64,000 bases of DNA from Escherichia phage vB_EcoM_SP13, in the sequence record OP352608; one strand, written 5' to 3'. Each line of letters begins with the position of its first letter. Position 1 is the first letter of the stretch. Shown here one piece after another: positions 7,431 to 46,806 of the stretch. The translations under genes and the position numbers were made by a program. A model generated the notes under the pieces. The model was not told the origin of the DNA. It saw nothing but the letters and a program-made list of their open reading frames with translations, and ran no database searches.

Positions 7431-7440
7431 AGAGGAAGTT

Positions 7441-9417: not shown

Positions 9418-9419
9418 AC

Positions 9420-10037: not shown

Positions 10038-10051
10038 TAGGCAGGTGAATA

Positions 10052-15760: not shown

Positions 15761-16089
15761 TGTATCAAATACCACTTGACAGCGTACCTAACCAGAATAT
15801 CAGCTTTAACGTTGACGGTGCATATTGGCAGTTGCACATTTTTGCCGCTATCGAGCACATGTGCGCCGACGTATACCGCAACGGTGAACTTTTGATTCAA
15901 GGGGTGCGCTGTTTTGGTGGTATCCCAATGGTGCCTTATAAGTATCTCATGATTGGGTACGGTAATTTCATTTTCGACAGCGTACCTGATTATGAAAGTT
16001 TTAACTCTGGCGGCTGTAATCTATATTACATGTCAGAATCTGAGTTGGCTGAATTCCAGGCAACTGCTGAAGCGGAGTTTGCAATTTGA
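15760..16089 (+). CDS. hypothetical tail protein
   Basis: ATG overlaps previous stop (TAATG). Confidence 0.35.
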   Translation: MYQIPLDSVPNQNISFNVDGAYWQLHIFAAIEHMCADVYRNGELLIQGVRCFGGIPMVPYKYLMIGYGNFIFDSVPDYESFNSGGCNLYYMSESELAEFQATAEAEFAI

Positions 16090-16442
16090 CAACTCTAACA
16101 ATTGAAGTTAACGAAAATAATGACCTTTTTCTGCCTGATGGAAGAAACTTAAATATTCTTTCAGGAGAAAAAGCGATGGTGCAAGTAATCAAGGCCGCGC
16201 ACCAGATGCGACTTGGTGAAGACTTGTACGATATAGAAAACGGTGTCGATTATTTGGGGACCGTTTTCAAGTCGCCCGTTGACGAAGACGGTGCGCGAAA
16301 GTCGATTGCAGATGCTATTCTGAAGAAAGCAGACGTTGCCGGAATCGACTCGTTGACTGTCACCATCCAAAACGGTATCCTTGGATTCACTGCAGAAGTG
16401 GTGACTATTTATGGCGAACGTATAAAGGTGAGTAATCAATAA
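16086..16442 (+). CDS. hypothetical tail protein
   Basis: TTG start in track; alternative ATG at 16176 with AGGAG RBS. Confidence 0.35.
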   Translation: MTTLTIEVNENNDLFLPDGRNLNILSGEKAMVQVIKAAHQMRLGEDLYDIENGVDYLGTVFKSPVDEDGARKSIADAILKKADVAGIDSLTVTIQNGILGFTAEVVTIYGERIKVSNQ

Positions 16443-16708
16443 TGGCACAAGTAATTCATTTTGCAAATGGCGTCATGAAATTTGGCGAAAAATTTGAAGA
16501 CGCATCAGAGCTGTTTAATAAGAAGGTTGATCCTGTTGCAGAAATCAAAGAGCAGGTCGAAGAAAAATCCGTTGAACAAAAACTAGATTTTGATTCCATG
16601 AGCGTTTCAGAATTGAAGTCTTATGCTAAAGAAAATGGCATTGACATCAAGGGTCTTTCTTATAAGGATGAAATTCTTGCTGCAGTTAAATCTGCATCTG
16701 CGGAGTAA
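16442..16708 (+). CDS. small protein with HeH/SAP-like motif
   Basis: SVSELKSYAKENGIDIKGLSYKDEILAAV resembles a helix-extension-helix DNA/RNA-binding motif. Confidence 0.35.
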   Translation: MAQVIHFANGVMKFGEKFEDASELFNKKVDPVAEIKEQVEEKSVEQKLDFDSMSVSELKSYAKENGIDIKGLSYKDEILAAVKSASAE

Positions 16709-16710
16709 AC

Positions 16711-17208
16711 ATGGTCAATATTAGTGGATTTGGCACAAGCATTAGAATTGTCGCTCTTCAATCTTTTCCTGTTGGGCTGAATATCAGTTCTTTGTCTGAT
16801 GACCAGGATTCGCTAATCATTGAGGAAGTTGAATCAGTAGGTTATCAACTTACTTACGACGGCGGCATTTGCATATACGACAAAGCCGCCGTCGTTCGCG
16901 TATCCATTGCGGTCATTCCAAACACTGAAGACGACATAAATCTTAAGCTTTTATTATCTGCCCGTAAAGGTGGATTCAAGTGGTTGCCAATTCAGGATGT
17001 GACATCGATGCTCATTACATATCCTGACGGTGGAAGGGTGGCATTCTCTAACGGAACGATAATCAGCGGTCCGCTTGGTGACTCCATAGAGCAATCAGGC
17101 CGTCGCAAGACAAACCGATACACATTTGTGTTTGCCAGCTACGGTGGCGCACAGAGCACGTCTCAAATTGCCAAGGGCGTGGTGCAGAGCATATTGGGGT
17201 CCATTTAA
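16711..17208 (+). CDS. tail tube protein paralog
   Basis: Clear similarity to 15293-15760 product (MINVSGFGASIRLVA vs MVNISGFGTSIRIVA; ITYPxG; RxKTxRY). Confidence 0.5.
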   Translation: MVNISGFGTSIRIVALQSFPVGLNISSLSDDQDSLIIEEVESVGYQLTYDGGICIYDKAAVVRVSIAVIPNTEDDINLKLLLSARKGGFKWLPIQDVTSMLITYPDGGRVAFSNGTIISGPLGDSIEQSGRRKTNRYTFVFASYGGAQSTSQIAKGVVQSILGSI

Positions 17209-17741
17209 TGGCTATCGATTTACTGTCATATAGTCTATCAAACAGAAGCTTCACGATAAAGAGCTTCAACCTTGGAGAAGTATCCACGCTTGGATGGGCC
17301 ATAGTCAACGTCAAAATAAGACTCCAAGCAAAGATATTCAAAAACCAAAGGGAAGACGGCAGCTATATTGTCGATGGCAGAGTAAAGATGCCGCGAATAC
17401 TCACTGTCACCGTGATAGCTCAGACGAAAAGCGCATCAGATGCAATAGCTAAGATGTTGCAAAACAGGTCGACTATATACACAATTAATTCCCGTGGTCT
17501 AATATTCGAACGTATGGTGCTGCAAAATAACAACTTCAGCCAGGACGCTGACAATATAACGTCTCAGCCCATACAATTGGTCTTCCATGAGATATTAACA
17601 CAGCAGGATGTGTCTATTCAAACAGCGCAGGCAGGCGACTCAACAGTAATAGAGCGCGGCATTGCATACATAAAAGAAACTTCTGCCAGCGTCACCGGCG
17701 TCGCTACAAAGGTGATGAATGGTATCAAGGGGATGTTCTGA
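17208..17741 (+). CDS. hypothetical tail protein
   Basis: ORF overlapping previous stop. Confidence 0.35.
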   Translation: MAIDLLSYSLSNRSFTIKSFNLGEVSTLGWAIVNVKIRLQAKIFKNQREDGSYIVDGRVKMPRILTVTVIAQTKSASDAIAKMLQNRSTIYTINSRGLIFERMVLQNNNFSQDADNITSQPIQLVFHEILTQQDVSIQTAQAGDSTVIERGIAYIKETSASVTGVATKVMNGIKGMF

Positions 17742-30522: not shown

Positions 30523-31500
30523 TTAGAAATACTCCATATCGGTAATATCACGGAAGCATTTATACAAAGCAGAGCGCGGCACGTCAACGATGCCAAAGTT
30601 AAAGAATTTATACGTAAGGTATTTATCGCGATAGTTTTCGCGATTCTCCCAAAGCATTTTACGCTCTGCCATAGGCATTGAACCAGCGGAGACGCGGAAA
30701 GGAATCATTTCACCTTTCTCATCCACATATTTTGGATTGACGACTACGAATGAGCCAAGGTATCCTTTCGCAACTAAACCTTCAGCCTCTTTTGAACGCT
30801 TGGTGCGACCCAATTCGTCAATGAATGCTTCGTTGTTGTTCTCCATCATCTCAACGAAGTCTATGATCAATCCTTCTTCATCGGTCCACGGCTTGTCCTT
30901 CCACACATCACGTGACTTCGGCGTCGCGCGGCCATGCTTGTATTTGCCCGTCCAAGACTTGCCATACAAGCCTTCATATCCAAGCTGGTCCGCTTCGATT
31001 TGCATCGCCGCGTACTGTTCCATATTTTCGATGTTTCGATATTCGAGAGCGCGAAGGAATGGGCGTCGACCATGGTTGATGAGATGTTGATTAACTTCAG
31101 CAACTCTAGCTCGATAGTTCGCATAACGCTTTTCAAAAGGCAAATCAGGGTCGCTGAAGTCATCAAACACCCACCATGTAAAGTTAGTGATTGCATCAGT
31201 ATTCATGCACGCAGTATAGGCCTGTTGCATGACGTTCTTGTCATTTGGATTGCCGTCGATTAGCTCTCCATCAAGTCCGTGAATTAGTTCACCCAAAAAG
31301 AGGAATTCTTTTTTGATTTGAACGTTTCTCAGCGCCATGCCGGACGTGCCCATTGGCAAGTTGTCATACGCCATTGCGCGTATTCCATCGACCTTGAATG
31401 ACAATCCGCAAGGCAGCGGCACGTCTTCGCCGCGCTCGATTATTTGCTTACGCTGGCAACCCTTCATTGGTTTTAATGCTTTGATTTCTCCTGCCATCAC
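30523..31500 (-). CDS. ATP-dependent DNA ligase
   Basis: Adenylation motif I FKVDGIR near N-terminus; 325 aa consistent with minimal phage ligases; AAGGAG RBS. Confidence 0.6.
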   Translation of the reverse strand: MMAGEIKALKPMKGCQRKQIIERGEDVPLPCGLSFKVDGIRAMAYDNLPMGTSGMALRNVQIKKEFLFLGELIHGLDGELIDGNPNDKNVMQQAYTACMNTDAITNFTWWVFDDFSDPDLPFEKRYANYRARVAEVNQHLINHGRRPFLRALEYRNIENMEQYAAMQIEADQLGYEGLYGKSWTGKYKHGRATPKSRDVWKDKPWTDEEGLIIDFVEMMENNNEAFIDELGRTKRSKEAEGLVAKGYLGSFVVVNPKYVDEKGEMIPFRVSAGSMPMAERKMLWENRENYRDKYLTYKFFNFGIVDVPRSALYKCFRDITDMEYF

Positions 31501-32090
31501 TCAAACTCCTTATTCATCACTTGTTCCAGCGCATAGGCGTAAGCCTGATCAGTAGATTTGATGAACGTTCCGTTGTACATGACACCTTTGCGGTCCTTGA
31601 TGTCTTCGTAGGCCGCTTGCGCACAGTCGGATAAGCGAAGGCCATAATCATGAGCTACGCCGGAAAGGTAATCGACTGCGGCCATGATGGTGACGTCAAT
31701 ATCCATGGTCTGATTCTTAGCAATAGCATCACCAAGCCGTCCAAGGGTCTTTGCCAGGCGAAGGATGAATGAATGAGGGTGAGCGCCTTTATCAGCACAA
31801 CCGCCGCCATTAATGTTTTCGATTTCAGTACCGTTTTGCGCCGCCAGGATGGTCAACACAACAAGACAATCGCCAATGTCGTCCTTGATTGCAGCTTGCA
31901 AGTCACAGATGGCCTGCTCTGTATATCCAATTTCAGGGTCGAAGAACACAAGGTCATGGAGTTGATCAACGTGGTCGGTTAACTCCCCAAACTCGCTGAT
32001 AAGCTTCGGGTATTGGTCCTTAAGGTCGCAACCTTGGATGATGTTACGGTCAGAAGCCCACTGGCGAATGTTTGCATAAATCTGTTTCAT
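31497..32090 (-). CDS. MazG-like nucleotide pyrophosphohydrolase
   Basis: EFGEL ... DIGDCLVVLTILA motif pattern typical of all-alpha NTP pyrophosphatases. Confidence 0.5.
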   Translation of the reverse strand: MKQIYANIRQWASDRNIIQGCDLKDQYPKLISEFGELTDHVDQLHDLVFFDPEIGYTEQAICDLQAAIKDDIGDCLVVLTILAAQNGTEIENINGGGCADKGAHPHSFILRLAKTLGRLGDAIAKNQTMDIDVTIMAAVDYLSGVAHDYGLRLSDCAQAAYEDIKDRKGVMYNGTFIKSTDQAYAYALEQVMNKEFE

Positions 32091-32663: not shown

Positions 32664-33524
32664 TTAAAACTCTTCTGCGTCGGTCGGAGTTTCATTGACA
32701 GGGCCAGCGGCACCGCTTGCTTCTTCCTGCTTGCTGCGGTCAATGTTAACGTTGCCGCCAACTACGTCGTTGTGGAATGCCTTGGCGACTTCGTACAGAC
32801 CTTTGTCCTGCACCAGACCTTCCAGCTCAAACTTCAGAACTGACCATGTATTGCCGTCTTTGGACTGGGATGCAGTGCCCATGCGAACGATGTTCATAAA
32901 GGTCGGCGGCGTTTTCAGACCCTGCGGAGTCTGAACTTTCTTCTGCTGCAGAGCTGTCATCAGCATGCGAGACGGCTTGATCATGGAAGAAGTCAGAGAC
33001 AGCATTGCGCTACCAAATTCACCAGTTTCTTCGTTCAACAGAATTACGAAGTGGTTACGTGTATCTGCGTAGTAAGGCGATTTCTTCTCGTGCACCTTGC
33101 CGTTTTCGTCCGGCACAAACACTTTACCGTTGATCTCAACAGCGCGCCCTGCCGCGACTTCTGCATCAACGTGCTCTTTGGTGAATTCACCTTTAAAGCC
33201 TTTATCGTCGGACTCGCGACCGCCCCAAAGGATGAAGGTGCGTTTGAATGCACAAGGGATGATCTGCACGCCTTTCTTGCCGTCATACAACTCACCAGTG
33301 ACGGTGTTGTAAAGCATGCCAGCTTTTGCGCCAGGAACGTGTTTCGGATCATCTTCGTCGACCATAGGTGACATCTTCTGCAGGACGACGATAAAAGGAA
33401 TGGCATACGCATCGGCATCGGCACCTTCAAAACCAGCGCCAAAATCGGTCATGTCGACAAAATCGGCCATAGCGGACATCTGGGTGTTTTTCACTGCAAC
33501 TTCGGTGGTTTCTTTCTTAGACAT
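32664..33524 (-). CDS. single-stranded DNA-binding protein-like (putative)
   Basis: Acidic C-terminal tail ending in aromatic residue (ETPTDAEEF) as in phage SSBs; sits in replication module. Confidence 0.4.
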   Translation of the reverse strand: MSKKETTEVAVKNTQMSAMADFVDMTDFGAGFEGADADAYAIPFIVVLQKMSPMVDEDDPKHVPGAKAGMLYNTVTGELYDGKKGVQIIPCAFKRTFILWGGRESDDKGFKGEFTKEHVDAEVAAGRAVEINGKVFVPDENGKVHEKKSPYYADTRNHFVILLNEETGEFGSAMLSLTSSMIKPSRMLMTALQQKKVQTPQGLKTPPTFMNIVRMGTASQSKDGNTWSVLKFELEGLVQDKGLYEVAKAFHNDVVGGNVNIDRSKQEEASGAAGPVNETPTDAEEF

Positions 33525-33583
33525 TTGATATTTTCCTATAGTATCAAGTTTCGTGGCAACCTGATTTCAAGATAAAGGTTAAA

Positions 33584-34141
33584 TTACTTTTTGCTTTTAG
33601 GCAAGGTTATTTTAGCTTCTTTGTATTCAAAAACGCTAATATCTTCACTAACTGGATTGCCTGCTTCCAGCTGTTCTTTTACAAATGACTTCAGTGTAGC
33701 AGAATGAACGCCTTGTTTCAATGTGGCTTCAACGCCATCTTCACGCAGCGCGGCAACAATCTCTTGCGCCTGTTCGATTTCTTCGCGACCGAACTCAGCC
33801 GTGACGCTGGACTTGATCAAGCCGCCGTAACCGTTGTTGACAAGCCAATCGAAAACTTTTAATTCGTTTTCTTTCTTGATTGAAGCATTCACCTTGGACT
33901 CGACCTTGATTTTGGTCTTGTCCTCAAGCTTGATTTCAGACACACCAAGCTCATCCATTACGCCAGGAAGCAAAACAGTTTTGATTTCACTGATGCGCTG
34001 CTTTTGCATATCAGCTTCATCTTCAAGCTCTGTCAAAGCTTCTTGACGTTCTGCAAGTTCAGATACTAAGCGCGCAAGGCGCTCTTGAATGCTCTCAGGA
34101 GCGACCTGCGGCAAATCATCTTCCCAATTAATATTGCTCAT
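33584..34141 (-). CDS. hypothetical protein (coiled-coil N-terminus)
   Basis: 185-aa ORF in replication module. Confidence 0.4.
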   Translation of the reverse strand: MSNINWEDDLPQVAPESIQERLARLVSELAERQEALTELEDEADMQKQRISEIKTVLLPGVMDELGVSEIKLEDKTKIKVESKVNASIKKENELKVFDWLVNNGYGGLIKSSVTAEFGREEIEQAQEIVAALREDGVEATLKQGVHSATLKSFVKEQLEAGNPVSEDISVFEYKEAKITLPKSKK

Positions 34142-35999: not shown

Positions 36000-36418
36000 G
36001 ACAATTCCTCTAAATACTTGATGATGTGATGAATAGTTCCCTTCACGATTATCTCACGTTGAACGTCTGCAGTATTATAACGCTTTAATTCAATAGAAGG
36101 GTGGACTAAATAAAACATCTTCTCAGAATCAACCTTAAGCAGAACAAATGATGGGTATTTCCAATCATTCCACGAAGAAAGAAAGCTGCATTGGCCTTTC
36201 TCAAATGCATTTCTGAAAGGTGCAGTGGTGGCCCTTGCAGGCCACGATTCAAAGAACTTCATTTCAAGCCAAAAGCCGCGCCCTTTCCGGTTGGTGCCGA
36301 TTACGTCCGGCACGCCATCACCAGTCATCGACTCGATTCGTTGAAGCTTCAATACCGATTCTGAATGCTTCTTCAAAGGCACGAATATGTATTTCTGCTC
36401 ACGGTTATTTGTTGCCAT
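35996..36418 (-). CDS. VRR-NUC domain nuclease
   Basis: GDGVPDVIG ... FWLEMK pattern of PD-(D/E)xK VRR-NUC nucleases; adjacent to SNF2 helicase as is common. Confidence 0.55.
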   Translation of the reverse strand: MATNNREQKYIFVPLKKHSESVLKLQRIESMTGDGVPDVIGTNRKGRGFWLEMKFFESWPARATTAPFRNAFEKGQCSFLSSWNDWKYPSFVLLKVDSEKMFYLVHPSIELKRYNTADVQREIIVKGTIHHIIKYLEELS

Positions 36419-39302
36419 CTGGATACACCTGTTTGATCACGTCAACGATGAACATGTCAATGCCTTCAAGCTTACGACCTTTCATCAGGAAGAATGCGCC
36501 GTTCCCGACGTTTTCAGCGATGTACTTCCCGTACTTCTGGAATTTCTCTGGACGAATCCTGAAGCGCATTGGCGAGTCGGTCGAGTCATCCTTGCACATA
36601 AGGTCGATGAACTGAGTCTCAAGCTTGTTCCCGTACTGGTCAAACTCTGCGTAGCGGCCATCAGCTTGAAGACCCTTTTTAAGCTTGCCGTGCTTTGTAT
36701 AGATGCCGCGCTCAAGTCGTTTACGGATGCGTGTTGCTTCGTTCTCGTCCGCAAGCACTTTCTTTGTCAACTTGCCGATTACTATTGCGCGCTCGTCATC
36801 ACCGACTTCCTTCATCTGGCGTATTGAAGCGCCGGACGTCACGCCAATCAGATAAGGGTCATTATATGCCCATCCGAACTTTGTGTGCATCTCTGTCAGG
36901 TCGCCATATTTAACTTCAGCATTGGCCAATGCATCCTTCTGCTTTTGCGTTAAGGTTCCGGCTTCACGCGCTTCGATATATTTCATCGCCTTCACCATGC
37001 CGTACCCTTTCGCGTTCATGATGCCGCCGATTAGCTTTCCGTTCGCGATGGTCCAGTTCATTGAAGAGTGATCAGGGTCGATTGGCACATAATCCACGCC
37101 TTCCTTCGCAAGTTCACGTAATATCGCAATCGTCTGGTCTTCGTCCTTAGCAGCGCGTAAGCAGGCTGCGGCAAATTCCAACGGGTAGTGTCGCTTAAGC
37201 CACAAGGTCCAGTAGGTCACGACCGCGTATGACACGGAGTGTGACTTGTTAAAGCCCCATGACCCGAACGTGGCCATCGCTTGCCAAAGCTTTCTTGCAT
37301 CCGCTTCCGGTACGCCATTATTTATTGCGCCTGCAACAAAGTCCTCTCCAAGCTTGTTAAAGTATTCTTCACCCTTACGGCCTGACATTGCCTTACGTAC
37401 AGCGGATGTTTTCGCCCAGTCGAATGAACCAATCTCTTTAACCACGGCCATGATTTGCTCTTGGTAAAGAAACACGCCGTAAGTCTCTTTTAGGTACGGC
37501 TCAATCTGCGGCACGTCGTACTCAATCGGCGCACGCCCTGCCGCGCGTTCAATGTATTTCTGGGCCATACCGGATGACAACGGGCCAGGTCGACCCAAAG
37601 CCGTCAGGTTGTCGATTTTGTTAAAGTTATCGACGTGCACAAAGTTTGTTACTGAGCGTACAGCGTCGCCTTCAAACTGGAAGATGCCTGACATCTTGTT
37701 TTCGTTAAGAATGTCAAGGACGCTTTGATCATCAAGCTTGATGCCGTAGAGCGTTTCAGCATCAATAACGCCTGTATCAGAAATAATTCCGAGAGTACGA
37801 AGGCCCAACGCATCAAGCTTCAAAAGGTTAAGGTATTCGCTGTCAGGCTTATCAATTTGTGCAATCCCTTCTGCAGTTACAGTACAGTAATCAGAGATTG
37901 GGTCATTACACACAATGATTCCCGCTGCGTGAACACCTGTGTGGGACGGGTGAATCTCAAGGTCGCCCATGCAACGCGCGGCATCAGGATATTTGGCCAC
38001 GAACTCTTGACCCGTGGTTGTTGTTGCAAAGGTATCCTCCAGGCCGTGACCATAACGGGCGTCACCGGATGAGTATTCAAGCAGTGCGTTTTTAATGTTG
38101 GCCGTTTCGTGGTATCCAATGTTGAACTTCTTACCAACCTGCGCCATTACTGAGTTGGCCTTAAGCGTGTTGATGTTGCCAAGCTTTGCAACGTTCATTT
38201 CGCCGTATTTCTCTTTAAGGTAATCAAACACCATGTAGCGTTTGGTATCTTCAAAGTCGATGTCGATGTCAGGAAGGTCGGCGCGGCTTACGTCGATGAA
38301 TCGGGCAAACAGCAGCTTATACGGGATTGGGTCCACTTCCGTGATGCCAAGGCAATAGCAAACAAGTGAACCAGCCGATGAGCCGCGAGCAGGACCGACG
38401 AGCATTTTTGTTTTTGCGAATCGTACAAGGTCCGCTACTACCAGAAAGTATGAGTCGAAATCTTTCAGCTGAATCTGGTGAATTTCTTCGTTGAAGCGGT
38501 CCTCATATTCCTGAGTCCATTCTTTGATGTGACCTGCTTTGAGACGGTACTCCATCCCCTCACGCGCAAGCTTTACCATATCACCAGCAAGGTGAATAAT
38601 CGGTGCCTTGCGTAATTTCAGGTCAAGTCCGACTATGCCGTTTGCTATGTCAACAGCATTGGCCGTTGCCTGATTCAGCTCATCTTCCGTCAAGATGCCT
38701 TTAAGCTGTTTGCGCAAGTCTTCCGCGTCAACGATGCAGTGCGGCTTGACCGTGTCGCGCACTTCCCAAGCATAAGCAAAGTCAACGTGCTCAGGTGAAG
38801 GCATGTGGTTGTATCCGGTTAAAACCAGCGGCCTTCCGTTGCTGCGGTGAGCCAACACCTGGCGCTTAGCCAAAAGGAACGATGATGGGTTGACGTCTAT
38901 ATAATCGTAGTCCTCTGGCCGCAGCAACTCCACGGCACCGCCACAGAATTTAACGACGCCATCGAGCGCACCGAACTCTGCACGGGTAAGCCCGCCGCGC
39001 TGCGTTGAAAGTGTTGTAGCGTTGTAAAAAGATTTTAAGTCAAGGGCCAATATCCAAGCCTTCGGTTTGAATCCCTTTTTCGGGTCCGCATCAGGGTCGA
39101 TGATTGGAATCTCCATCCCAAACATAGGCTTAATATCATTTTTCTGGCATTCCTTTTCCCAGCGAACGTGACCCCATGTATTGTTATCAACTAATGCCGC
39201 GACTTCGCAGCCCAACTCTTTGAGCCGTGCTATAATTTCAGGATGCCGTCCATAAACTTCTTTGAACGTGTAACCGCTGCGAACTCTCAATTGTGGAAAC
39301 AT
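36405..39302 (-). CDS. dnaE: DNA polymerase III alpha subunit-like replicative polymerase
   Basis: 965 aa; N-terminal PHP-like region and ADLPDIDIDFE motif characteristic of Pol III alpha. Confidence 0.7.
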   Translation of the reverse strand: MFPQLRVRSGYTFKEVYGRHPEIIARLKELGCEVAALVDNNTWGHVRWEKECQKNDIKPMFGMEIPIIDPDADPKKGFKPKAWILALDLKSFYNATTLSTQRGGLTRAEFGALDGVVKFCGGAVELLRPEDYDYIDVNPSSFLLAKRQVLAHRSNGRPLVLTGYNHMPSPEHVDFAYAWEVRDTVKPHCIVDAEDLRKQLKGILTEDELNQATANAVDIANGIVGLDLKLRKAPIIHLAGDMVKLAREGMEYRLKAGHIKEWTQEYEDRFNEEIHQIQLKDFDSYFLVVADLVRFAKTKMLVGPARGSSAGSLVCYCLGITEVDPIPYKLLFARFIDVSRADLPDIDIDFEDTKRYMVFDYLKEKYGEMNVAKLGNINTLKANSVMAQVGKKFNIGYHETANIKNALLEYSSGDARYGHGLEDTFATTTTGQEFVAKYPDAARCMGDLEIHPSHTGVHAAGIIVCNDPISDYCTVTAEGIAQIDKPDSEYLNLLKLDALGLRTLGIISDTGVIDAETLYGIKLDDQSVLDILNENKMSGIFQFEGDAVRSVTNFVHVDNFNKIDNLTALGRPGPLSSGMAQKYIERAAGRAPIEYDVPQIEPYLKETYGVFLYQEQIMAVVKEIGSFDWAKTSAVRKAMSGRKGEEYFNKLGEDFVAGAINNGVPEADARKLWQAMATFGSWGFNKSHSVSYAVVTYWTLWLKRHYPLEFAAACLRAAKDEDQTIAILRELAKEGVDYVPIDPDHSSMNWTIANGKLIGGIMNAKGYGMVKAMKYIEAREAGTLTQKQKDALANAEVKYGDLTEMHTKFGWAYNDPYLIGVTSGASIRQMKEVGDDERAIVIGKLTKKVLADENEATRIRKRLERGIYTKHGKLKKGLQADGRYAEFDQYGNKLETQFIDLMCKDDSTDSPMRFRIRPEKFQKYGKYIAENVGNGAFFLMKGRKLEGIDMFIVDVIKQVYPDGNK

Positions 39303-39844
39303 TATTTACTCCAGATGTCATATACGCCAATTTGTTGGCAGACTTTGTGCAGTAATATTACGTCGTCTAATGCACGGTGCTTCTGTTCATATTTTCCGAA
39401 ATATAATTCATACAACTCTTGAAGCTTAACTCTTCGGCCAAAAATAGGCAAGGTTTGCTCAACTGTACATATGTTTATTTCTGGAAAATTAACATCATCA
39501 AGCGTAAGTCCTTCGCGCTGTAGTGCATAATCAAGAATGTTTTTATCGAACGCATGGTTGTGCGCGATAGTTGCATCAGTCTTCTTGAAGATTTCTTTTA
39601 GCTGCGGGACGAAATTGATGAACGGTGGATTGCACTCAAGGTCTTCATTTGTTAATCCGGTAATCTTTGTGATGATTTCTTCGATCACAATTTCAGGATT
39701 AATTATGAATTCAAAAGTTTCAAGAATCTCTTTGCCGTCTGTCAACAGACCTGCAAATTCAATAGGGCGCGGCTGCATCCCAAGCGGCGCTTTCGGGTGC
39801 ACTGTCAATCCGGTTGTTTCGAAGTCATAAGGGAGAAATAACAC
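39302..39844 (-). CDS. DnaQ-like 3'-5' exonuclease
   Basis: DEDDh motifs: DFETTG, HNHAFD, HRALDD. Confidence 0.7.
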   Translation of the reverse strand: MLFLPYDFETTGLTVHPKAPLGMQPRPIEFAGLLTDGKEILETFEFIINPEIVIEEIITKITGLTNEDLECNPPFINFVPQLKEIFKKTDATIAHNHAFDKNILDYALQREGLTLDDVNFPEINICTVEQTLPIFGRRVKLQELYELYFGKYEQKHRALDDVILLHKVCQQIGVYDIWSK

Positions 39845-39898
39845 ATTAGCCTCCTACAAAAAGGCCGCCCATTAGGACGGCCACAGATTCACGATTCG

Positions 39899-40450
39899 TT
39901 ATACAGTGTACGGAGTACCGTCTTGATTCAAGCGCACGATAAACTTCAAATCAACGCCGATGATTTCACGCGTATCAAAGATCACATAGTTGTAACGACG
40001 TTGACCAGCAATGTTCGGGTTGGTATGAGAGTCAGTTACAACTTCCTGTGCAACCTGAATACCTTCTTCTTTAAAGAACTTACGCCATTCAGCAAGTTCA
40101 GCGGCAGTCACGTGCATGCCAAGGTGGCTGACCTGATTGTCATGCGCATCGATATATTCGATGTTTTCGTTAATCCAGTTGCAGCCCATTGTGTAGTCAA
40201 GGATTTCAAGCTCAAGAGGCTTACCAGCGCCGCCATCAGTACCGTTGCCAGCCTGATAGTTGAAGCGCAAGTCAGCTTCATTGGTGCAATCGTCGCGACG
40301 ACCTTTAAAGTCATCAGCTTCAAATACGCGACCAGTAGCAACAACATGATCATGGAACCATTCTGTCAGGCCGATTTTAGCCAAGAAATCCTGTGCGCGC
40401 TGAGCATCTGGAATTGACAGGGCGATTTGTTCAATTTTAAAATGTGGCAT
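39899..40450 (-). CDS. VOC (glyoxalase/bleomycin-resistance-like) family protein
   Basis: Two beta-alpha-beta-like modules (KIEQIALSIPDAQRAQDFL; HLGMHVTAAELAEWRKFF) reminiscent of VOC fold; motif-level only. Confidence 0.35.
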   Translation of the reverse strand: MPHFKIEQIALSIPDAQRAQDFLAKIGLTEWFHDHVVATGRVFEADDFKGRRDDCTNEADLRFNYQAGNGTDGGAGKPLELEILDYTMGCNWINENIEYIDAHDNQVSHLGMHVTAAELAEWRKFFKEEGIQVAQEVVTDSHTNPNIAGQRRYNYVIFDTREIIGVDLKFIVRLNQDGTPYTV

Positions 40451-40546
40451 TTTGTTTCCTTAATTAAATATTATTGATTAATTACTGCGTTGTCTTCGTC
40501 CTGTTTCTTTTCAGGAGCGGGTGTGACAACTTCAAGTGTTCGTGAT

Positions 40547-41230
40547 TTATTTACCAAATGGAATATCAGTGCCAGACATAAAGCGCCATGCGCCCGTAAT
40601 TAAGATATGGCGAATGAAGTCAGCAATTACTTGCGGCTCAGTCTCCAATCCATTCATCAGTGCCTTTTTCTGGTATTCAGCGGCGTATTCAGGAGTCCAG
40701 CCGCGAGTCGCGCAAACGGCATCTTCAATCTGTTTAGACATGCCAGTGCCGCGCAACTTGTTAGGACTAATAGAGAATACCGTGATGCCGTACTTAGGCG
40801 TAAGTTCGTGAGCCATCTGCTTGCTGATCATAAGCGCAGCGGCCTTGGATGCATTATAACACAAGCTGGACGTCATAGGAATATGCGCAGCATTTGAAAC
40901 GATGTTGATCACAAAACCTTTGTTTTCGATAAGACCTTTCAGCGCGGCCTGAGTCGTGTTAACGAAAGAGAATGCATTGGTGTGCATAACGCGGTTAAAC
41001 TCTTCATAGTTTACATCTTCAAACCAATTGTTAGAGTTGACACCAGCACAGTTGATCAAGCCTTCAACATCATATGGGCTTAAAATTTCTTTCATCTGTT
41101 TAGCATCGCGGACGTCATATCCGTATGCTGAATCGATGCCAAGCACGTTATGACCGTAAGCGCCAAGGGTGTCAAAAATAGATTTACCAAGACCGGAATT
41201 GGAACCTGTTACAACAATTACTTTTTTCAT
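40547..41230 (-). CDS. short-chain dehydrogenase/reductase (SDR)
   Basis: Cofactor motif VTGSNSGLGK, NCAG, catalytic YNASK. Confidence 0.65.
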   Translation of the reverse strand: MKKVIVVTGSNSGLGKSIFDTLGAYGHNVLGIDSAYGYDVRDAKQMKEILSPYDVEGLINCAGVNSNNWFEDVNYEEFNRVMHTNAFSFVNTTQAALKGLIENKGFVINIVSNAAHIPMTSSLCYNASKAAALMISKQMAHELTPKYGITVFSISPNKLRGTGMSKQIEDAVCATRGWTPEYAAEYQKKALMNGLETEPQVIADFIRHILITGAWRFMSGTDIPFGK

Positions 41231-41295
41231 TTATTTATCCTTTTTGGACTTCGTTTCGATGAGGTAAATATAACTCATCGAAACGAACAAGTAAA

Positions 41296-42168
41296 CTATT
41301 TATTGAAATTAATATTATGGGTGTTTACAAGACGTTCACACATGGCGCTATAAACACCATCGTCGTGTATTGAGTCTTCGTGCTTCAGGCCGCTGATTGC
41401 GAAGCGTGTAAGCTTGACAATCTTAAGCTCGAACAGATGCCACATGTGGTAGTCTTCCGGCGTTTTCAACGTTACGCCATTAGGGAAAAGCACCTGCATA
41501 ACCTGACCTACCATCACAGCGTTATCGCCATAGACAGCGTTGCGCTCACGGAAGGTCGCTGCCATTGCATCAAGAATATCGGCGGCAGTTGCCGGAGATT
41601 GTTCAACTTCCACAGCCTTAGTCTCTTCTTGCCCTGTTGCGCTTGGATCAATTGCTAATTGTTGCACCACTTCACCTGCTTTGCAAAGATTAAATGTAAA
41701 AGCGATTTTATTTTGAGCAACGGAGTTATAATACAATGCTTCATCTTGCATCCGCGCGAGTACGTCTTGTCGGTCGTCGAATACATTGATGATTCGATAA
41801 TCGCCGTGCCGCAAAGCGTGCGATAGCCATGCAGATTTCATAATAGTTGATGGACGTTTGTCGCCATAGTCTCTCATCTTGATTGTAAATTCATCAAAAG
41901 GGAAAACATTGTCCAGACGTTCAAAAGTCACTTGTCTGTATTTTTCTGGCCTTGCAGTCCAATATTCAACCGCCTCACCGCGAAGAGATGCCGACTCTAC
42001 TGCTGATGCAATGTGAGGATAGAACTGATCATAACCAATACCGCTGTGATAGTCATCATAGTCTGACAACGGACCTGCCACCTTGATGCGGTCTAAGCGC
42101 CAACGGTCATCAAACAGAGTTCCGTCAAGGTCGAATACGTTTAAGATTTGGTTATTTTTGATACTCAT
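41296..42168 (-). CDS. HAD-superfamily phosphatase with C-terminal domain of unknown function
   Basis: N-terminal HAD motif I FDLDGTLFDD; about 120-aa C-terminal extension not recognised. Confidence 0.5.
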   Translation of the reverse strand: MSIKNNQILNVFDLDGTLFDDRWRLDRIKVAGPLSDYDDYHSGIGYDQFYPHIASAVESASLRGEAVEYWTARPEKYRQVTFERLDNVFPFDEFTIKMRDYGDKRPSTIMKSAWLSHALRHGDYRIINVFDDRQDVLARMQDEALYYNSVAQNKIAFTFNLCKAGEVVQQLAIDPSATGQEETKAVEVEQSPATAADILDAMAATFRERNAVYGDNAVMVGQVMQVLFPNGVTLKTPEDYHMWHLFELKIVKLTRFAISGLKHEDSIHDDGVYSAMCERLVNTHNINFNK

Positions 42169-42968
42169 CCTTTTGATACTCCATCTTTGGCAACCGGATT
42201 ATTGGTGATTGGCATCGCATCCCAAAACTGGATGCGCAACTCTTCTTGCTGTGCAGTGGTATCCATCCAATCACGATACCAAGGGCAATGGGCCTTGCCA
42301 TGGCGAGGGAATGCGCACTTGCCCATACCGATGCATTGCGGCTGTAGTAAAGGATTAGCCCACGGGTGCACCTTGAGGACTTCCGCTACCATCGCACGGA
42401 AAACTTCCTGATACTCGCCTTGAGTACGCGTGCACAAGCGGTTAGAGGCCATTTGTTGTAGAGTGCGCAAGTTGAACTTTGCCATGATATGCGTTTGCAT
42501 ATTAGAAGGCAACACGGCACGTGCATCTTGAATCTCTGCGCCAGCCGCGCGAAGTTCTTGGTATAGGGCGTCAATGGTTGCCATTGCATCATCCCATTTC
42601 TCTGCCAGTTCAGCAGCCTTCTCGTCATGACGAGTCCATCCCTTTGGATCATCCTCTGGGTAAGTGAATTTGGCAGGACGAATCGCATCAAACGCTGACG
42701 ACTCCTGAGCGCGGCTTGTTCGTTCTTGATATGCACCTGTTCGTGTGCGCACCATCTGATGAGTCATATTCTTTGATACATCAGTGATGTCAAAGATATA
42801 GTCAACAAAGTCGAAAGGTGACTTTATGGTGTCAAGCATGTAGCGCCAGTGCTCTTGCTTCTCTGATTCTGTCATCTCAGAGACTGGCTTACCAGCCATG
42901 CGCGTATTCTTTGTTTCCAGCAGAAGGTCAAGTGCATCTTGGGTGTATCGAATTAATTCAACTTTCAT
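42165..42968 (-). CDS. thyX: flavin-dependent thymidylate synthase ThyX-like
   Basis: ThyX-like blocks: VRTRTGAYQERTSR (RHR-x8-S motif with His replaced by Thr), ARAVLPSNMQTHIMAKFNLRTL; extra Cys/His-rich C-terminal 50 aa. Confidence 0.6.
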   Translation of the reverse strand: MKVELIRYTQDALDLLLETKNTRMAGKPVSEMTESEKQEHWRYMLDTIKSPFDFVDYIFDITDVSKNMTHQMVRTRTGAYQERTSRAQESSAFDAIRPAKFTYPEDDPKGWTRHDEKAAELAEKWDDAMATIDALYQELRAAGAEIQDARAVLPSNMQTHIMAKFNLRTLQQMASNRLCTRTQGEYQEVFRAMVAEVLKVHPWANPLLQPQCIGMGKCAFPRHGKAHCPWYRDWMDTTAQQEELRIQFWDAMPITNNPVAKDGVSKG

Positions 42969-42981
42969 TTTAATTATCCTA

Positions 42982-43428
42982 TTAACGGTAGTTAACTAGT
43001 TGCTGATCACCAGAGAAGGTGCAATGATAAACGAATTGTGCGTTATAAAGCAACTGAAAACTTTTCTTTGGTTCATTATTAGAACTCATTGATGTAAAGA
43101 TTTCTGCACCAGAACGGTTTTCACCAATCAGGTTGATAAAGCCGCCAGTTGAACGAGGCTGAACGAAAGTGAAACGTTGCATCCACGGAGTGCGGTTGGC
43201 ACCTTTCCCTGTGAATCCTTGAATCTGAATATTCAGGCCTTCTTGCTCGTTCACACCGATGTAAGTGGTAATTGTTGCGCCAGTCGTTGCTGCAGTCTTG
43301 CCGTCCATCGCTTCGCAATCGTAAACAGCGATTGAATCGGAAGTACGGACAGCGGCTTCAGTCGCTTCCATATACATGGTTCCGAGAATAGCAGTTGCGG
43401 CAAGCGCGATTCCAGTGATTCGTTTCAT
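42982..43428 (-). CDS. secreted protein of unknown function
   Basis: Signal-peptide-like N-terminus MKRITGIALAATAILGTMYMEATEA. Confidence 0.45.
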   Translation of the reverse strand: MKRITGIALAATAILGTMYMEATEAAVRTSDSIAVYDCEAMDGKTAATTGATITTYIGVNEQEGLNIQIQGFTGKGANRTPWMQRFTFVQPRSTGGFINLIGENRSGAEIFTSMSSNNEPKKSFQLLYNAQFVYHCTFSGDQQLVNYR

Positions 43429-43493
43429 TTTCGTTTCCTCTATGAGTTCTGCTTCAATGATTAAAGTATACGCCCATTGAAGCAGAAAGCAAA

Positions 43494-44489
43494 TTATTTA
43501 TTAGCAATATAAGCAAATTTTTGATAGTTATTTGCTTTGATGAGTTTTTCAACTTCAACAAGGTCATGAGCAACGTCATCAAGCAAAATGTTTCGCCAAG
43601 TAGCAAAGCGACCGACACTAAATACGTTCAAATCCATGGTCAGCTGTAGGAGTAGAGCGTGTCGCAAGTCTTTCGGAATGTCGACAATCTTGCCATACTT
43701 CTGGTCGACCTTTTCAACTTCTTCGAGATCGATGTCACTCCATGATAGGCCAAAGGCTGTCAATACTTCGTCAACTTCTGCACGCAACTTAATGTCACGG
43801 TAACGAGTAATGCCGCCAGCGGCTTCAACTGCGGCTTCACTTACGCTAACCAAAGGAATTGTTTCAATGATCAGTGTGTCACCAGTGATTGATGCGCGGT
43901 AAGTTCTGACGGAGTAGTCAGGAAAGTAAATGGTTTGATACAGTGCACACTTGCGCTTAATCTTAAAGCGGTAAACACGAATGTTTGCCTTATCGAATGA
44001 GAAATCAATCTTTTGATCAATCCCAGCAAGCTTCATCATGACTGGCAGCGGCGACGTGTTGATGATTGGCGTCTCGCTATAGCCGCAAAGAGTATCAACA
44101 GGAGTATTAAAGAATATGCGGTCACCCAGTTTGTCGACAAGCTGATCATAAAAGTCATCAGGCGCAATATAACGCGTTGCAGTTTTAAGCTTCATGATTG
44201 AGCGGCTACCGAATTGATTAGTGACCTTCATGGAATACATATTGGCAAGGTTGATTGGGCAATGGTCGTGGTAGTAGTTGCCGCGAAAATACACAGCCTT
44301 GTCAACTGTCACGGCCTTAAAAGGGATTCCGGTAATACGGCTTACTTCTTCGCCGCGAAATCGTAGCAAAGCCTTGTGCTGTGGCGCTCGTTCCCCTGCT
44401 TCGTACACAATGGAGTTCGGGAAGTGACACGCGGTAATAAGTCCTGCCAAACCGCCGCCGATAATCATTACAGGTTGTTTCATGTTCAT
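43494..44489 (-). CDS. FAD/NAD(P)-binding oxidoreductase
   Basis: N-terminal Rossmann dinucleotide-binding motif VMIIGGGLAGL; 331 aa; function unknown. Confidence 0.5.
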   Translation of the reverse strand: MNMKQPVMIIGGGLAGLITACHFPNSIVYEAGERAPQHKALLRFRGEEVSRITGIPFKAVTVDKAVYFRGNYYHDHCPINLANMYSMKVTNQFGSRSIMKLKTATRYIAPDDFYDQLVDKLGDRIFFNTPVDTLCGYSETPIINTSPLPVMMKLAGIDQKIDFSFDKANIRVYRFKIKRKCALYQTIYFPDYSVRTYRASITGDTLIIETIPLVSVSEAAVEAAGGITRYRDIKLRAEVDEVLTAFGLSWSDIDLEEVEKVDQKYGKIVDIPKDLRHALLLQLTMDLNVFSVGRFATWRNILLDDVAHDLVEVEKLIKANNYQKFAYIANK

Positions 44490-44622
44490 TTGTCCTTTGT
44501 GGGTGATATGAGAAGTATAATAGCTAAATTATTTTACAGCAACAAGTCATTTCTATTTAGTACAGACGAAAAAGACCCACAACAAGTGTGGGTCAATTAC
44601 CGCTATATAACCGTCCTACAGG

Positions 44623-45462
44623 TTATTCCGCTTGATCACCGTCTTCGGCATTGTCGTTGGATTCAACATCGACAAACTCGATGTGGCCCATCTCTTCCAG
44701 CTTGCTCAGGTAGGAGCGAACGGAAGCGCCAAACAGTTGATCTTTAACTTTTTCGCCCAGCTCATCGATAGACTGCGCCACGCCAACTTCGCCTTCTTTG
44801 ATCGCCGCCAGAACGCGTCCACGGGTGGAATGCTCTTGCGGCTGGCTCAGGCCATTGCCGGTGTAGATGAAGTGAGTGGCTTTTGCACGACGCTGACCGT
44901 TTGCCTTTTTAGCAGCCTTGCGCTCTGCGATGGCTTTGCGACGTTCTTCAGCTTCTTTCTTACGCTGTTCTTTCTGCTGTTCTGCAGCTTCTTTAGCCGC
45001 AATCTTAGCAGCTTCACGCTCTGCCTTGCGTTTCGCTTTAGCTTCTTCTTTGGCCTTCTCTTTTTCGGCCTTCGCTGCAGCACGGGCTTGATCACGCTCT
45101 GCTTTCTTGGCCGCAGCCTGCTCAGCTTTCAGGCGCTTGGCTTCTTCTTTAGCCTTTGCCTTTTCGATTTCTTTTGCTGCTTTAGCGGCTTCACGCTCTG
45201 CTTTCTTAGCAGCAGCCTTTTCTGCACGCTCTTTAGCTTTCTTAGCTGCTTCTTCAGCACGCTTCTGCGCCTTCTCATCAGCAGCCTGCTTGCGTTTCAG
45301 CGCAGCTTCTTCACGCTTGGCTTGTTTTTCCTGCTCACGCTTCTGGCGCTTCTCTTCGGCTTCTTTCTTTTTAGCCAGGCGTTTTTCTTCAGCCACGCGA
45401 CGACGTTCTGCTGCGGCTGCTTGTTTTTCTTCTTTAGATAATACTTTGATTGCTTCGGCCAT
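44623..45462 (-). CDS. highly charged K/A/E-rich protein with globular C-terminal domain
   Basis: About 190 aa of KAE-rich low-complexity repeats (AKKAKERAEKAAAKKAERE...) then a 70-aa non-repetitive C-terminus; AAGGA RBS before ATG 45462. Confidence 0.5.
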   Translation of the reverse strand: MAEAIKVLSKEEKQAAAAERRRVAEEKRLAKKKEAEEKRQKREQEKQAKREEAALKRKQAADEKAQKRAEEAAKKAKERAEKAAAKKAEREAAKAAKEIEKAKAKEEAKRLKAEQAAAKKAERDQARAAAKAEKEKAKEEAKAKRKAEREAAKIAAKEAAEQQKEQRKKEAEERRKAIAERKAAKKANGQRRAKATHFIYTGNGLSQPQEHSTRGRVLAAIKEGEVGVAQSIDELGEKVKDQLFGASVRSYLSKLEEMGHIEFVDVESNDNAEDGDQAE

Positions 45463-45621
45463 ATTCACAGTCCTTAAATAAATTAGTTTATTTTATATTC
45501 CCCGTTTGGGATAACTTAATTATGCCTTCAGTTGCCGCCAGTAGCAACTAAAAACTATGGCGGCAATGCCACTTTAATTAAACTGATTTTCAGTTTTATT
45601 TTTCGTAAATTTACGTCAACA

Positions 45622-46806
45622 TTAACGCGCTTTCAAATCACGGTACACGGTCAGATTCTTCTTAGCACGGGTGATAGCGGTGTACATCATCTTGGAGTAC
45701 GGAACGCCGCGCAAGATTTCTTCCAGCACGCACACATTATCCCACTCGCTGCCTTGCGATTTGTGCACCGTGATGACATAGCCATAGTCCATCCCGCCAA
45801 CAGCGCGTTGCGCTTCTTTGCGCACTTCCTGATCAGTAGAGAAGGAAAGAGGATTGATCTTCACCTTTATATCTTTACCATCAGTTAATGAACGCAAGTT
45901 GACATACATTATTTCATTCGACTCATCTTCATCCCTTTCAAAGTCCGGCACTGGCTCATAGCTAATAACAATCCCTTGCTCGCCATTACAGAATCCTGGA
46001 CCGTGTTGGTTGAATGTGCAAATAACCTTCTCGCCGATTCCTGGCATTGGCGTTATACGTCCGCTCACTTGCCGTAATAATGAATTCCATTTATCTTTGG
46101 TGCTATTATAGGAGCAAATAATTTGATCATCTTCGCCCATGAATTTCTTCAATGCAGTAACGCGCGGCGATTCTGCCAATACTTTGACGTCATCGTATTC
46201 ACGCGGGGGAAGGCGGTTGCCTTGGCGCACGAAGAAGGAGGCGCGGATTATATTGGACTCTTTCCCTTGCCGCATGATTTCGGTTAACAGCACGTCAACG
46301 GCATCTTCAGTAAAGTAGGCGGCGGCTTTTACCGGAGGGACTTGTCCAATGTCGCCTAATGCCAGGACAGGGATGCGGTGATCAAGAAGGCGCTCTGTGT
46401 CCCACTCGCCAACCATCGACGCTTCATCGAGTACAACAAGGTGCGGCCTTTCATCCAGCTTTGACTTTCTCGAAAAGATTGGCTCATTGTCGTCATTTAC
46501 GCCGCGCACGTTATAGATGAACTGGTGAAGGGTCTTAGCGCCACGACAGCCTTTTTGCTTTAATCGGCTTGCAGCCTTTCCGGTCGGCGCAATATAGATA
46601 GCTCCATACTCACCGACACAACGGCGCACAATCTCGCGAGCAATAGAGGTTTTACCAGTCCCTGCATAGCCAGCGATGAAAAACACGCGCTTCGTCGTTT
46701 TACCGTCCTGCAATCGCTTGTACCATGCAACGGCTTTCTCGATGGCGTCGATTTGTTGCGCGTTAAACTGAATCACTGGCTCATCATTAAATTCTGGAAT
46801 GTTCAT
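45622..46806 (-). CDS. Dda/RecD-like SF1 DNA helicase
   Basis: Walker A AGYAGTGKT, Walker B VVLDEASMV, C-terminal VITVHKSQGSEWDNV and TAITRAK motifs. Confidence 0.7.
   Translation of the reverse strand: MNIPEFNDEPVIQFNAQQIDAIEKAVAWYKRLQDGKTTKRVFFIAGYAGTGKTSIAREIVRRCVGEYGAIYIAPTGKAASRLKQKGCRGAKTLHQFIYNVRGVNDDNEPIFSRKSKLDERPHLVVLDEASMVGEWDTERLLDHRIPVLALGDIGQVPPVKAAAYFTEDAVDVLLTEIMRQGKESNIIRASFFVRQGNRLPPREYDDVKVLAESPRVTALKKFMGEDDQIICSYNSTKDKWNSLLRQVSGRITPMPGIGEKVICTFNQHGPGFCNGEQGIVISYEPVPDFERDEDESNEIMYVNLRSLTDGKDIKVKINPLSFSTDQEVRKEAQRAVGGMDYGYVITVHKSQGSEWDNVCVLEEILRGVPYSKMMYTAITRAKKNLTVYRDLKAR

Follow-up and report, generated by a model that had tools for sequence, protein, structure and literature searches.

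A ThyX-like protein, a flavoprotein and a HAD phosphatase in a DnaE-type phage replication module: candidates for thymidine hypermodification

Introduction

What does a run of enzyme-like genes do inside a phage replication module? The question is raised by Escherichia phage vB_EcoM_SP13 (sequence record OP352608), of which we analysed a stretch of 64,000 nucleotides, here called the window. An initial annotation, made from the sequence alone, described positions 39899–44489 as an island of six co-directional genes, encoding a FAD/NAD-binding oxidoreductase, a signal-peptide protein, a ThyX-like enzyme, a HAD phosphatase with an unrecognised C-terminal domain, an SDR and a VOC-fold protein, and suggested that together they might constitute a pathway for making or modifying a nucleotide or another small molecule. 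We find that three of these genes, for the flavoprotein, the ThyX-like protein and the HAD phosphatase, are a core trio that recurs across many phage groups, and that the same trio is present in Pseudomonas phages whose DNA carries novel thymidine derivatives. The most likely role of the module, put forward here tentatively, is to equip the DNA of the phage itself with a hypermodified thymidine, or with a C5-substituted deoxyuridine, which would protect it from restriction. The initial idea of a pathway making or modifying a nucleotide is the reading that we favour too, and it is partly supported by our results, the pathway itself being one that we infer.

Phages of the genus Pbunavirus rank with the Pseudomonas phages most often used in therapy, and hypermodification of their DNA was found recently. 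If the module is the pathway responsible, it would provide the genetic basis for this hypermodification and for the resistance of Wifcevirus, the genus of the window phage, to most restriction systems.

Organisation and conservation of the module

The window region matches Escherichia phage F13 (OP745617.1) at 100% identity, and 27 other Wifcevirus genomes at 93–97%. Six minus-strand open reading frames (ORFs) are present at 39899–44489, as initially annotated, and read from 44489 towards 39899 they encode proteins of 331, 148, 267, 290, 227 and 183 amino acids. The genes exist as described and, bracketed by two strong terminator-like hairpins, make up a single discrete unit in the window phage. 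The upstream hairpin (44594..44574, minus strand; GACCCACA-CTTGT-TGTGGGTC followed by TTTTT) sits between the gene for a Lys-rich protein and the flavoprotein gene, and the downstream hairpin (39882..39863, minus strand; GGCCGTCC-TAAT-GGGCGGCC followed by TTTTT) lies immediately 3′ of the VOC stop codon. The record of phage Mansfield has terminators annotated at both equivalent places. Within the unit, the stop of the ThyX-like gene and the start of the HAD gene overlap by 4 nt. A weak sigma-70-like promoter match (44528..44555, minus strand; TAGAAA-16-AATAAT, 9 of 12 positions) is located just upstream of the flavoprotein gene, and because such sites are no commoner here than in shuffled sequence, we take it as a suggestion only.

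The base composition of the six genes is no different from that of their surroundings or of the rest of the genome. We therefore rejected an acquired island, as the composition is uniform and the genes are ancestral to the replication module; the word is misleading because five of the six share this ancestry. What had been described as an island of non-standard genes is, for these five, a conserved and ordered part of the DnaE-type replication module across many phage groups.

The conserved order is flavoprotein, ThyX-like protein, HAD phosphatase with a DUF6378-like domain, the SDR and VOC proteins where present, exonuclease and DnaE. We surveyed distinct loci whose sequence extends 6 kb or more beyond the flavoprotein gene on its downstream side, 46 in all. 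The ThyX-like gene is found in all 46, and the DUF6378-like domain, the exonuclease and DnaE are each found in 44. SDR and VOC are both present in 32 loci and both missing from 13, and a single locus has VOC only. The module is composed of a universal core trio and an optional SDR and VOC pair, to which Wifcevirus adds an inserted ORF with a signal peptide-like start.

The arrangement is shared by PB1-like myoviruses and by further phage groups that are mainly uncultivated. Module members include Luteibacter phage Pluto, Burkholderia phage WTB and Pseudomonas phages F8 and 14-1, as well as 80 IMG/VR loci, some of them on contigs of 43–58 kb that are devoid of the helicase and Lys-rich genes of PB1-like phages. 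The order is kept on the most divergent contigs from metagenome-assembled genomes (MAGs), at 29–37% identity. Phages of Pseudomonas, Xanthomonas, Serratia, Rhizobium and other hosts carry the flavoprotein family, always with a ThyX-like gene, and in Cronobacter phage Ss1, whose genome measures 42 kb, the coding regions of the two share 4 bases. Rhizobium phage TM2_3B (206 kb) has the entire core trio inside a 7-kb segment, and DnaE was not found in the 17-kb stretch examined there. The linkage of the core trio goes further than ordinary synteny.

A more distant arrangement is seen in the Gram-positive siphophage RikSengupta of Microbacterium (OQ995427), where genes for a FAD-Rossmann oxidoreductase, a HAD phosphatase, an SDR and a VOC-like protein precede a split DnaE. 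A GT2 glycosyltransferase and a 459-residue ThyX-like protein with RQR in place of RHR are encoded a few kb downstream (features at 6779–10094 and 14029–15105, and at 2386–3765 of a second stretch, in coordinates of the examined stretches). The RikSengupta oxidoreductase is weakly related to the flavoprotein family, with an hhalign probability of 46%.

The ThyX-like protein

The second member of the core trio is a ThyX-fold protein of 267 amino acids (42165–42968, minus strand; Pfam Thy1). Its residues 5–203 align to positions 2–191 of PF02511 (Thy1) with an E-value of 1.4e-30 and 106.9 bits, against a gathering threshold of 24.8, and it shares with ThyX (PF02511/TIGR02170; Thermotoga maritima TM0449, Mycobacterium tuberculosis Rv2754c) the fold, a full-length Pfam match and the residues for dUMP and FAD. 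Canonical ThyX has the signature RHR(X)7S, its His53 stacks on folate, and Gln75, Arg78, Arg80, Arg90, Arg147, Asn163, Arg165 and Arg174 hold dUMP and FAD. The window protein reads RTR(X)7T and has Ile for His53, Thr for Ser88, Ala for Tyr91 and Arg for His178.

We surveyed these positions (T. maritima numbering) in 68 distinct module-associated sequences, including the window protein. Positions 53, 59 and 178, each a His in the reference, are Ile, Phe and Arg, respectively, in all 68. The His of RHR (position 79) is never a His but Thr, Ser or Asn, and position 91 is never a Tyr but Ala, Val or Ile. Gln75 and Arg78, 80, 90, 147, 165 and 174 are invariant, and Asn163 is found in 65 of the 68. 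Judged by these residues, the ThyX-like protein belongs to a distinct non-canonical clade, set apart from ThyX also by its constant second flavoprotein partner and by a score of 83.0 bits, which is below the cut-off of 87.9 for the NCBIfam equivalog TIGR02170. The initial view that ThyX alone is ordinary phage nucleotide metabolism does not hold for a clade that lacks the RHR His, His53 and Tyr91.

Ser88 and Tyr91 are conserved among ThyX enzymes and aid methylene transfer (PMC8316439). In the canonical reaction, a one-carbon unit is carried on N5 of the reduced flavin and passed to C5 of dUMP, and the resulting exocyclic methylene is reduced (PMC8989533); trapping of this methylene by a nucleophile has been discussed (PMC8989533), and the ThyX flavin can also take up an aldehyde directly, as a carbinolamine on N5 (PMC8316439). 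Since the clade keeps the nucleotide and FAD sites and replaces the donor-facing His53 and the position of the transferred carbon (Tyr91/Ser88) by small or aliphatic residues, we propose that the ThyX-like protein and its flavoprotein partner attach a sugar-derived unit.

The main alternative, somewhat less likely in our view, is that the trio serves ordinary nucleotide supply and the healing of DNA ends instead. The ThyX-like protein would make dTMP with the flavoprotein as its reductase, as a two-component synthase in which the partner stands in for the lost NADPH site, the HAD protein would clear 3′-phosphates from nicked DNA or dephosphorylate unwanted dNMPs, and no base would be modified; a synthase of this kind would also be novel within ThyX biochemistry. 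The Thy1 fold, with every nucleotide- and FAD-contacting Arg, Asn and Gln kept, speaks for such a role, and the loss of His53 could reflect reduction passed on to a partner. However, Tyr91 and the RHR His are not mere NADPH-site residues, Tyr91 has the role in methylene transfer mentioned above and is never a Tyr in the clade, and the score below the thyX equivalog cut-off likewise argues against an ordinary synthase.

The flavoprotein

The first member of the core trio is a FAD-binding flavoprotein of 331 amino acids (43494–44489, minus strand; phrog_4828) with the fold of UDP-galactopyranose mutase (UGM), protoporphyrinogen oxidase and amine oxidase. It matches no Pfam or NCBIfam family, the UGM/GLF families included, and searches of PDB sequences gave chance-level matches only, both for the single sequence and for a 40-sequence profile. 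A protein database search returned 1,910 homologues, which have in common an N-terminal GxGxxG and a C-terminal SxGRFATW...DD. The FAD Rossmann GxGxxG, the C-terminal GR...DD and the three-part fold are shared with the superfamily of UGM (Glf), amine oxidases and protoporphyrinogen oxidases. Among 185,579 species genomes of GTDB, the flavoprotein occurs at six loci, all on MAG contigs of 3–59 kb that have the same phage-like module, so that the scan gave no independent cellular context for the family. The family is essentially confined to phages.

In UGM, the flavin N5 makes a covalent iminium with the anomeric carbon (C1) of an aldose, an adduct of the same type as that of ThyX with its one-carbon unit. 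Flavoproteins of the UGM/amine-oxidase fold class are typically oxidases, desaturases and mutases and not NAD(P)H:flavin reductases, which argues against the reductase role that ordinary dTMP synthesis would assign to this protein; on the other hand, the top structural matches include eukaryotic UGMs, some of which were crystallised with NAD(P)H.

Could the flavoprotein be a genuine UGM, whose UDP-galactofuranose would modify the surface glycans of the host? Galactofuranose is a component of the O16 antigen, on which the Wifcevirus phages of BASEL depend, and the Mansfield record annotates a UGM, citing an HHpred probability of 100% to E. coli UGM 1I8T. By eye, the C-terminal GRFATW..DD also resembles the UGM motif GRxxxYxY.MD. 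The Tyr residues of that motif are, however, replaced in the flavoprotein (GRFATWRNILLDD; read by eye), and at 331 residues the protein is shorter than the matched UGM chains, which have 363–510. Together with the missing UGM family match, even at the level of the profile against PDB sequences, and with a family that is always accompanied by a ThyX-like gene and, in Gram-negative loci, never lies beside a recognisable glycosyltransferase, this makes a true UGM extremely improbable.

The HAD phosphatase and its C-terminal domain

The third member of the core trio is a fusion of 290 amino acids (41296–42168, minus strand). Residues 1–175 (approximately 41644–42168) form a HAD phosphatase domain of the T4 Pnkp 3′-phosphatase type, which scores above the Pfam HAD_PNKP gathering threshold and matches the T4 Pnkp phosphatase in structure. 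The residues of HAD motifs I–IV (DxD, T/S, K, DD), namely D13, D15, T71, K111, D131 and D132, are invariant in 40 homologues. Neither Pfam nor the predicted model reveals a P-loop 5′-kinase domain in the protein, so its common annotation as a polynucleotide kinase, recorded elsewhere as 'polynucleotide kinase/phosphorylase', is wrong. The protein is thus of the same phosphatase type as T4 Pnkp but lacks the kinase, and differs further in the DUF6378-like domain that is fused to it or encoded next to it.

The C-terminal domain had been called unrecognised. In the predicted model, the last ~100 residues form a confident four-helix domain (residues 195–280, approximately 41329–41586, minus strand), which a low-confidence linker joins to the HAD domain. 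Its invariant positions are R, YG, N, K, R, H-DS and D-Y, and in around 20 related loci it is a separate ORF of 100–117 residues beside a stand-alone HAD gene. The domain appears to be weakly related to DUF6378 (PF19905, cut-off 27.1): two stand-alone homologues score 18.4 and 16.0 bits and F8 ORF057 scores 15.4, nearly the whole profile being covered, and the window domain itself gives no match. A profile of the domain found chance-level matches only among PDB sequences. We dropped the idea of an obvious MazG relative, since comparison with the phage's own MazG-like protein gave an hhalign probability of 0.8%.

SDR, VOC and signal-peptide genes

The optional pair begins with a classical SDR of 227 amino acids (40547–41230, minus strand), which matches Pfam adh_short with an E-value of 4.5e-31 and 108.3 bits (gathering threshold 26.6). 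Its cofactor and catalytic motifs are intact, with TGSNSGLG, NCAG and YNASK for TGxxxGxG, NxAG and YxxxK. The second protein of the pair is a distant VOC (glyoxalase/dioxygenase-fold) protein of 183 amino acids (39899–40450, minus strand). The window sequence scores 18.5 bits with Glyoxalase_4 (E 0.0025), below the gathering threshold of 27; nine of 12 homologues match the same family, with a best E-value of 7.5e-6, and the VOC profile gave chance-level matches only with PDB sequences. Overall, the initial fold assignments were essentially right. The gap between the SDR and VOC genes (40451–40546) is 96 nt in F13; Mansfield and ManiWeber have an additional ORF of 56–71 residues there, so the unit differs by an indel at this site.

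Between the flavoprotein and ThyX-like genes lies an ORF of 148 amino acids (42982–43428, minus strand) with a signal-peptide-like N-terminus (MKRITGIALAATAILGTMYMEATEA). It has no Pfam or PHROG family match and occurs in 28 records, all of Wifcevirus. The ORF is probably a Wifcevirus-specific insertion outside the pathway. The initial description of a secreted protein is borne out as far as the N-terminus goes, and its membership of a pathway is unlikely, since it is a genus-specific insertion.

Ordinary nucleotide supply leaves the SDR and VOC pair unexplained. A further alternative takes the locus as a mixed bag, in which the trio acts in nucleotide metabolism of either kind, and the SDR, VOC and secreted-protein genes have separate auxiliary or host-takeover roles (such as detoxification, or lipid or redox metabolism) and are joined to it by nothing more than the transcription unit. 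PHROGs files the SDR as FabG-like in the category 'moron, auxiliary metabolic gene and host takeover', neither the SDR nor the VOC protein reaches a specific NCBIfam family, and the pair is absent from Pbunavirus and from ~28% of the loci and hence dispensable for the core function; the genus-specific signal-peptide ORF points the same way. Against this, SDR and VOC are gained and lost together, as the survey counts show, and their position never varies: they follow HAD-DUF6378 and precede the exonuclease, on one strand with them, also at 38–39% identity and in the Gram-positive phage, which is unusual for free-standing morons. We consider independent auxiliary genes unlikely.

DNA hypermodification and restriction in related phages

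The DNA of Pbunavirus F8 and 14-1 contains novel thymidine-derived nucleosides of 362 and 390 Da (2025 preprint, PMC12191111), which replace about one quarter of T and occur in a TG context (PMC12191111). They were read as a tetrose sugar-alcohol adduct and a cyclised aldopentose adduct, respectively (PMC12191111). The preprint names no biosynthetic genes; it describes such phages as having no recognisable modification genes and stresses that homology-based prediction misses them (PMC12191111). According to our count, TG accounts for 27% of the T positions in F8. By composition, C14H22N2O9 (362.13) corresponds to thymidine (dT) plus tetrose, to 5-hydroxymethyldeoxyuridine (5-hmdU) plus tetritol minus H2O, or to deoxyuridine (dU) plus pentose plus 2H minus H2O, and C15H22N2O10 (390.13) corresponds to 5-hmdU plus pentose minus H2O or to dU plus hexose minus H2O. 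The reported masses thus fit both routes to a product, namely reductive alkylation with an aldose and trapping of the methylene by a sugar hydroxyl.

F8 and 14-1 represent a sister lineage of Wifcevirus, for which the chemistry was measured; the window phage is known from its genes alone. Both carry the core trio (ORF065, ORF059 and ORF057) in the same order beside the exonuclease and DnaE, with a flavoprotein 39.5% identical to that of the window phage, and unlike the window phage they have no SDR, VOC or signal-peptide ORF. Besides a MazG-like protein, the F8 and 14-1 ORFs that we scanned include nothing else recognisable as a small-molecule enzyme. The module is, tentatively, the leading candidate for thymidine hypermodification, and under ordinary nucleotide supply both Pbunavirus hypermodification and Wifcevirus restriction resistance would be left without candidate genes. 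A literature search found no paper that links a flavin-dependent thymidylate synthase to phage hypermodification or assigns a role to these genes.

We looked for the determinant of the 362 versus 390 Da specificity by comparing F8 with 14-1. The two phages are 97% identical in the flavoprotein, 94% in ThyX and 81% in HAD, and the differences in the trio are diffuse or fall in the acidic linker. The most divergent protein of the compared region is F8 ORF070 (3031–4227) relative to 14-1 ORF70 (15997–17301; coordinates of the examined stretches), with 57% identity and 398 versus 434 residues. F8 ORF070 has a Cys-rich zinc-ribbon-like segment and a coiled coil, no enzyme signature and no window counterpart.

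For Wifcevirus, restriction was recorded in vivo. The BASEL completion paper covers four Wifcevirus isolates, and its tables list 19 EcoRI, 4 EcoRV, 92 EcoCFT_II and 89 EcoP1_I sites for ManiWeber, which plates with an efficiency near 1 on EcoRI, EcoRV and EcoCFT_II and not on EcoP1_I. F8 DNA, by comparison, is cut by EcoRI (PMC12191111). More broadly, the plating pattern of Wifcevirus is one of protection from EcoKI, EcoCFT_I, EcoRI, EcoRV and EcoCFT_II and of killing by EcoP1_I (AGACC/GGTCT). Our own site counts reproduce the table (AGACC 89, GAATTC 38, CACAG 92). CACAG is presumably the EcoCFT_II site, its count of 92 being the matching one, although four other 5-mers also occur 92 times. 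The plating pattern would fit protection of T before A, G or T and not before C; it would fit equally well if EcoP1_I tolerates the modification. Papers on vB_Eco4M-7 and on WFC/WFH give no restriction-digest or modification data.

Proposed mechanism and comparison with known pathways

In the hypermodification pathway that we favour, the ThyX-like protein would work on its retained dUMP/FAD scaffold, the residues for folate and NADPH stacking and for methylene transfer (His53, RHR His, Tyr91) having been lost. It would use reduced-flavin N5 adduct chemistry to attach a sugar-derived carbon unit, larger than a methylene, to C5 of the pyrimidine; alternatively, a sugar hydroxyl might trap the exocyclic-methylene intermediate. 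The UGM-fold flavoprotein might form or present the sugar–flavin iminium, or else be a dedicated redox partner. The capless Pnkp-type HAD phosphatase, aided by the DUF6378-like domain, may remove a phosphate on the nucleotide, on DNA or on the appended sugar, and SDR and VOC could tailor the sugar by redox chemistry, isomerisation or epimerisation in the lineages that have them, including the window phage. The signal-peptide ORF would be an unrelated insertion.

A more specific version of this pathway, unlikely in its exact form, has the ThyX-fold and UGM-fold pair perform a reductive or cyclising C5 alkylation with an aldose via a flavin-N5–sugar iminium. HAD would then remove the sugar phosphate and SDR and VOC would diversify the sugar, giving C–C-linked polyol or C-glycosyl products (362 as dU plus reduced pentose; 390 as dU plus cyclised hexose). 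If aldose C5-alkylation is true, it would constitute a new class of DNA-hypermodification pathway, hard-wired into the DnaE-type module of Pbunavirus, Wifcevirus and thousands of uncultivated phages.

The pathways of M6, ViI, SP10, phiW-14 and PaMx11 (PMC5889632, PMC8989533) would share with the one proposed here their outcome, a bulky substituent on the thymine C5-methyl that blocks restriction and is reached through an exocyclic methylene. Those pathways use a ThyA-family dUMP hydroxymethylase, the kinase 5-HMUDK, aGPT-Pplase and pyridoxal phosphate (PLP) or radical-SAM enzymes. Comparison with such known clusters, as initially suggested, did not turn up the signature enzymes of 5-hmdU-based systems: no dUMP hydroxymethylase, 5-HMUDK or aGPT-Pplase was found in Pfam and PHROG scans of the six genes, the flanks and ten further ORFs (all of ~100 residues or more), nor in the PHROG-style annotation of ManiWeber, and no PLP or radical-SAM enzyme of the known thymidine pathways was recognised in the scans of the window ORFs.

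Closer precedents exist for the two flavin-related folds. The 5-hydroxy-dCMP synthase of RB69 and DLP3 (PMC13326640) is a thymidylate-synthase-family enzyme that was re-tooled with flavin to start glycosyl DNA hypermodification, and the UDP-galactofuranose route of Rhizobium phage RL38J1 (PMC13326640) places a UGM in a phage DNA-glycosylation cluster. These systems involve a ThyA fold, cytosine, and a bona fide UGM with DNA glycosyltransferases, whereas the module of the window phage has a ThyX fold, a remote relation to UGM and no glycosyltransferase.

Several points weigh against hypermodification by this module. Gene structure, folds, residue patterns, co-occurrence and the published phenotypes of relatives are what we observe, and from them we infer the substrate, every chemical step and the modified base in the window phage; the link from these genes to the Pbunavirus modification is made only by elimination and chemical plausibility. 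All dUMP-binding residues are retained in the ThyX-like clade, and in TM2_3B the trio lies amid dUTPase and ribonucleotide reductase genes, both of which fit plain nucleotide-pool metabolism; for ordinary supply also speaks the constant place of the trio beside the exonuclease and DnaE genes. The structural matches of the flavoprotein are only marginally nearer to UGM than to protoporphyrinogen or amine oxidases. Synteny extends over the entire replication module, so a conserved order carries little weight by itself, and the surveyed loci are phylogenetically related and not independent samples. F8 and 14-1 make different adducts with the same gene set and near-identical trios. In addition, the TG specificity of the change and its extent, ~25% of T, point to modification of DNA after replication, which a ThyX of the mononucleotide type does not obviously explain. 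A TG-only motif was rejected for Wifcevirus, since the sites of EcoRI and EcoRV have no TG and the phage is still unrestricted; its motif, if any, must therefore be broader than that of Pbunavirus.

If the favoured reading is true, the flavoprotein together with a ThyX carrying R-x-R would serve as a sequence marker by which modified DNA could be predicted for metagenomic phages and for hundreds of isolates. It would bear on the choice and engineering of therapeutic phages that face restriction and END-type nucleases, and would add a new reaction type to covalent catalysis by flavin N5.

Neighbouring genes

Downstream of the unit, Pfam and PHROG scans identify a DEDDh 3′–5′ exonuclease (39302–39844, minus strand) and a DnaE-type DNA polymerase III alpha (36405–39302, minus strand). 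Upstream are a Lys-rich protein of 281 residues (44623–45468, minus strand; phrog_4765) and a Dda-like helicase (45622–46806). The Lys-rich protein, which is rich in Lys, Ala and Glu and named 'TolA' in some records, has a non-repetitive C-terminal part and might bind DNA. In PB1-like phages (F8 ORF066) its gene directly precedes the flavoprotein gene, a conserved position; other phage groups with the module lack it.

Ten additional mid-size ORFs of the window were scanned, and none of them was enzyme-like. The gene for a MazG-like pyrophosphatase (31497–32090, minus strand; phrog_1992, E 1e-62, no Pfam match) adjoins the ligase gene within this replication module and has a homologue in F8 (ORF049); its product could contribute to shaping the nucleotide pool. 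Two replication-module proteins at 32664–34141 (minus strand) match Pfam families that take their names from cyanophage Pam3, namely Pam3_Gp34 (E 4e-86) and DUF7307, a Pam3 gp33-like family (E 3e-37), which points to a replication module common to PB1-like phages and a cyanophage.

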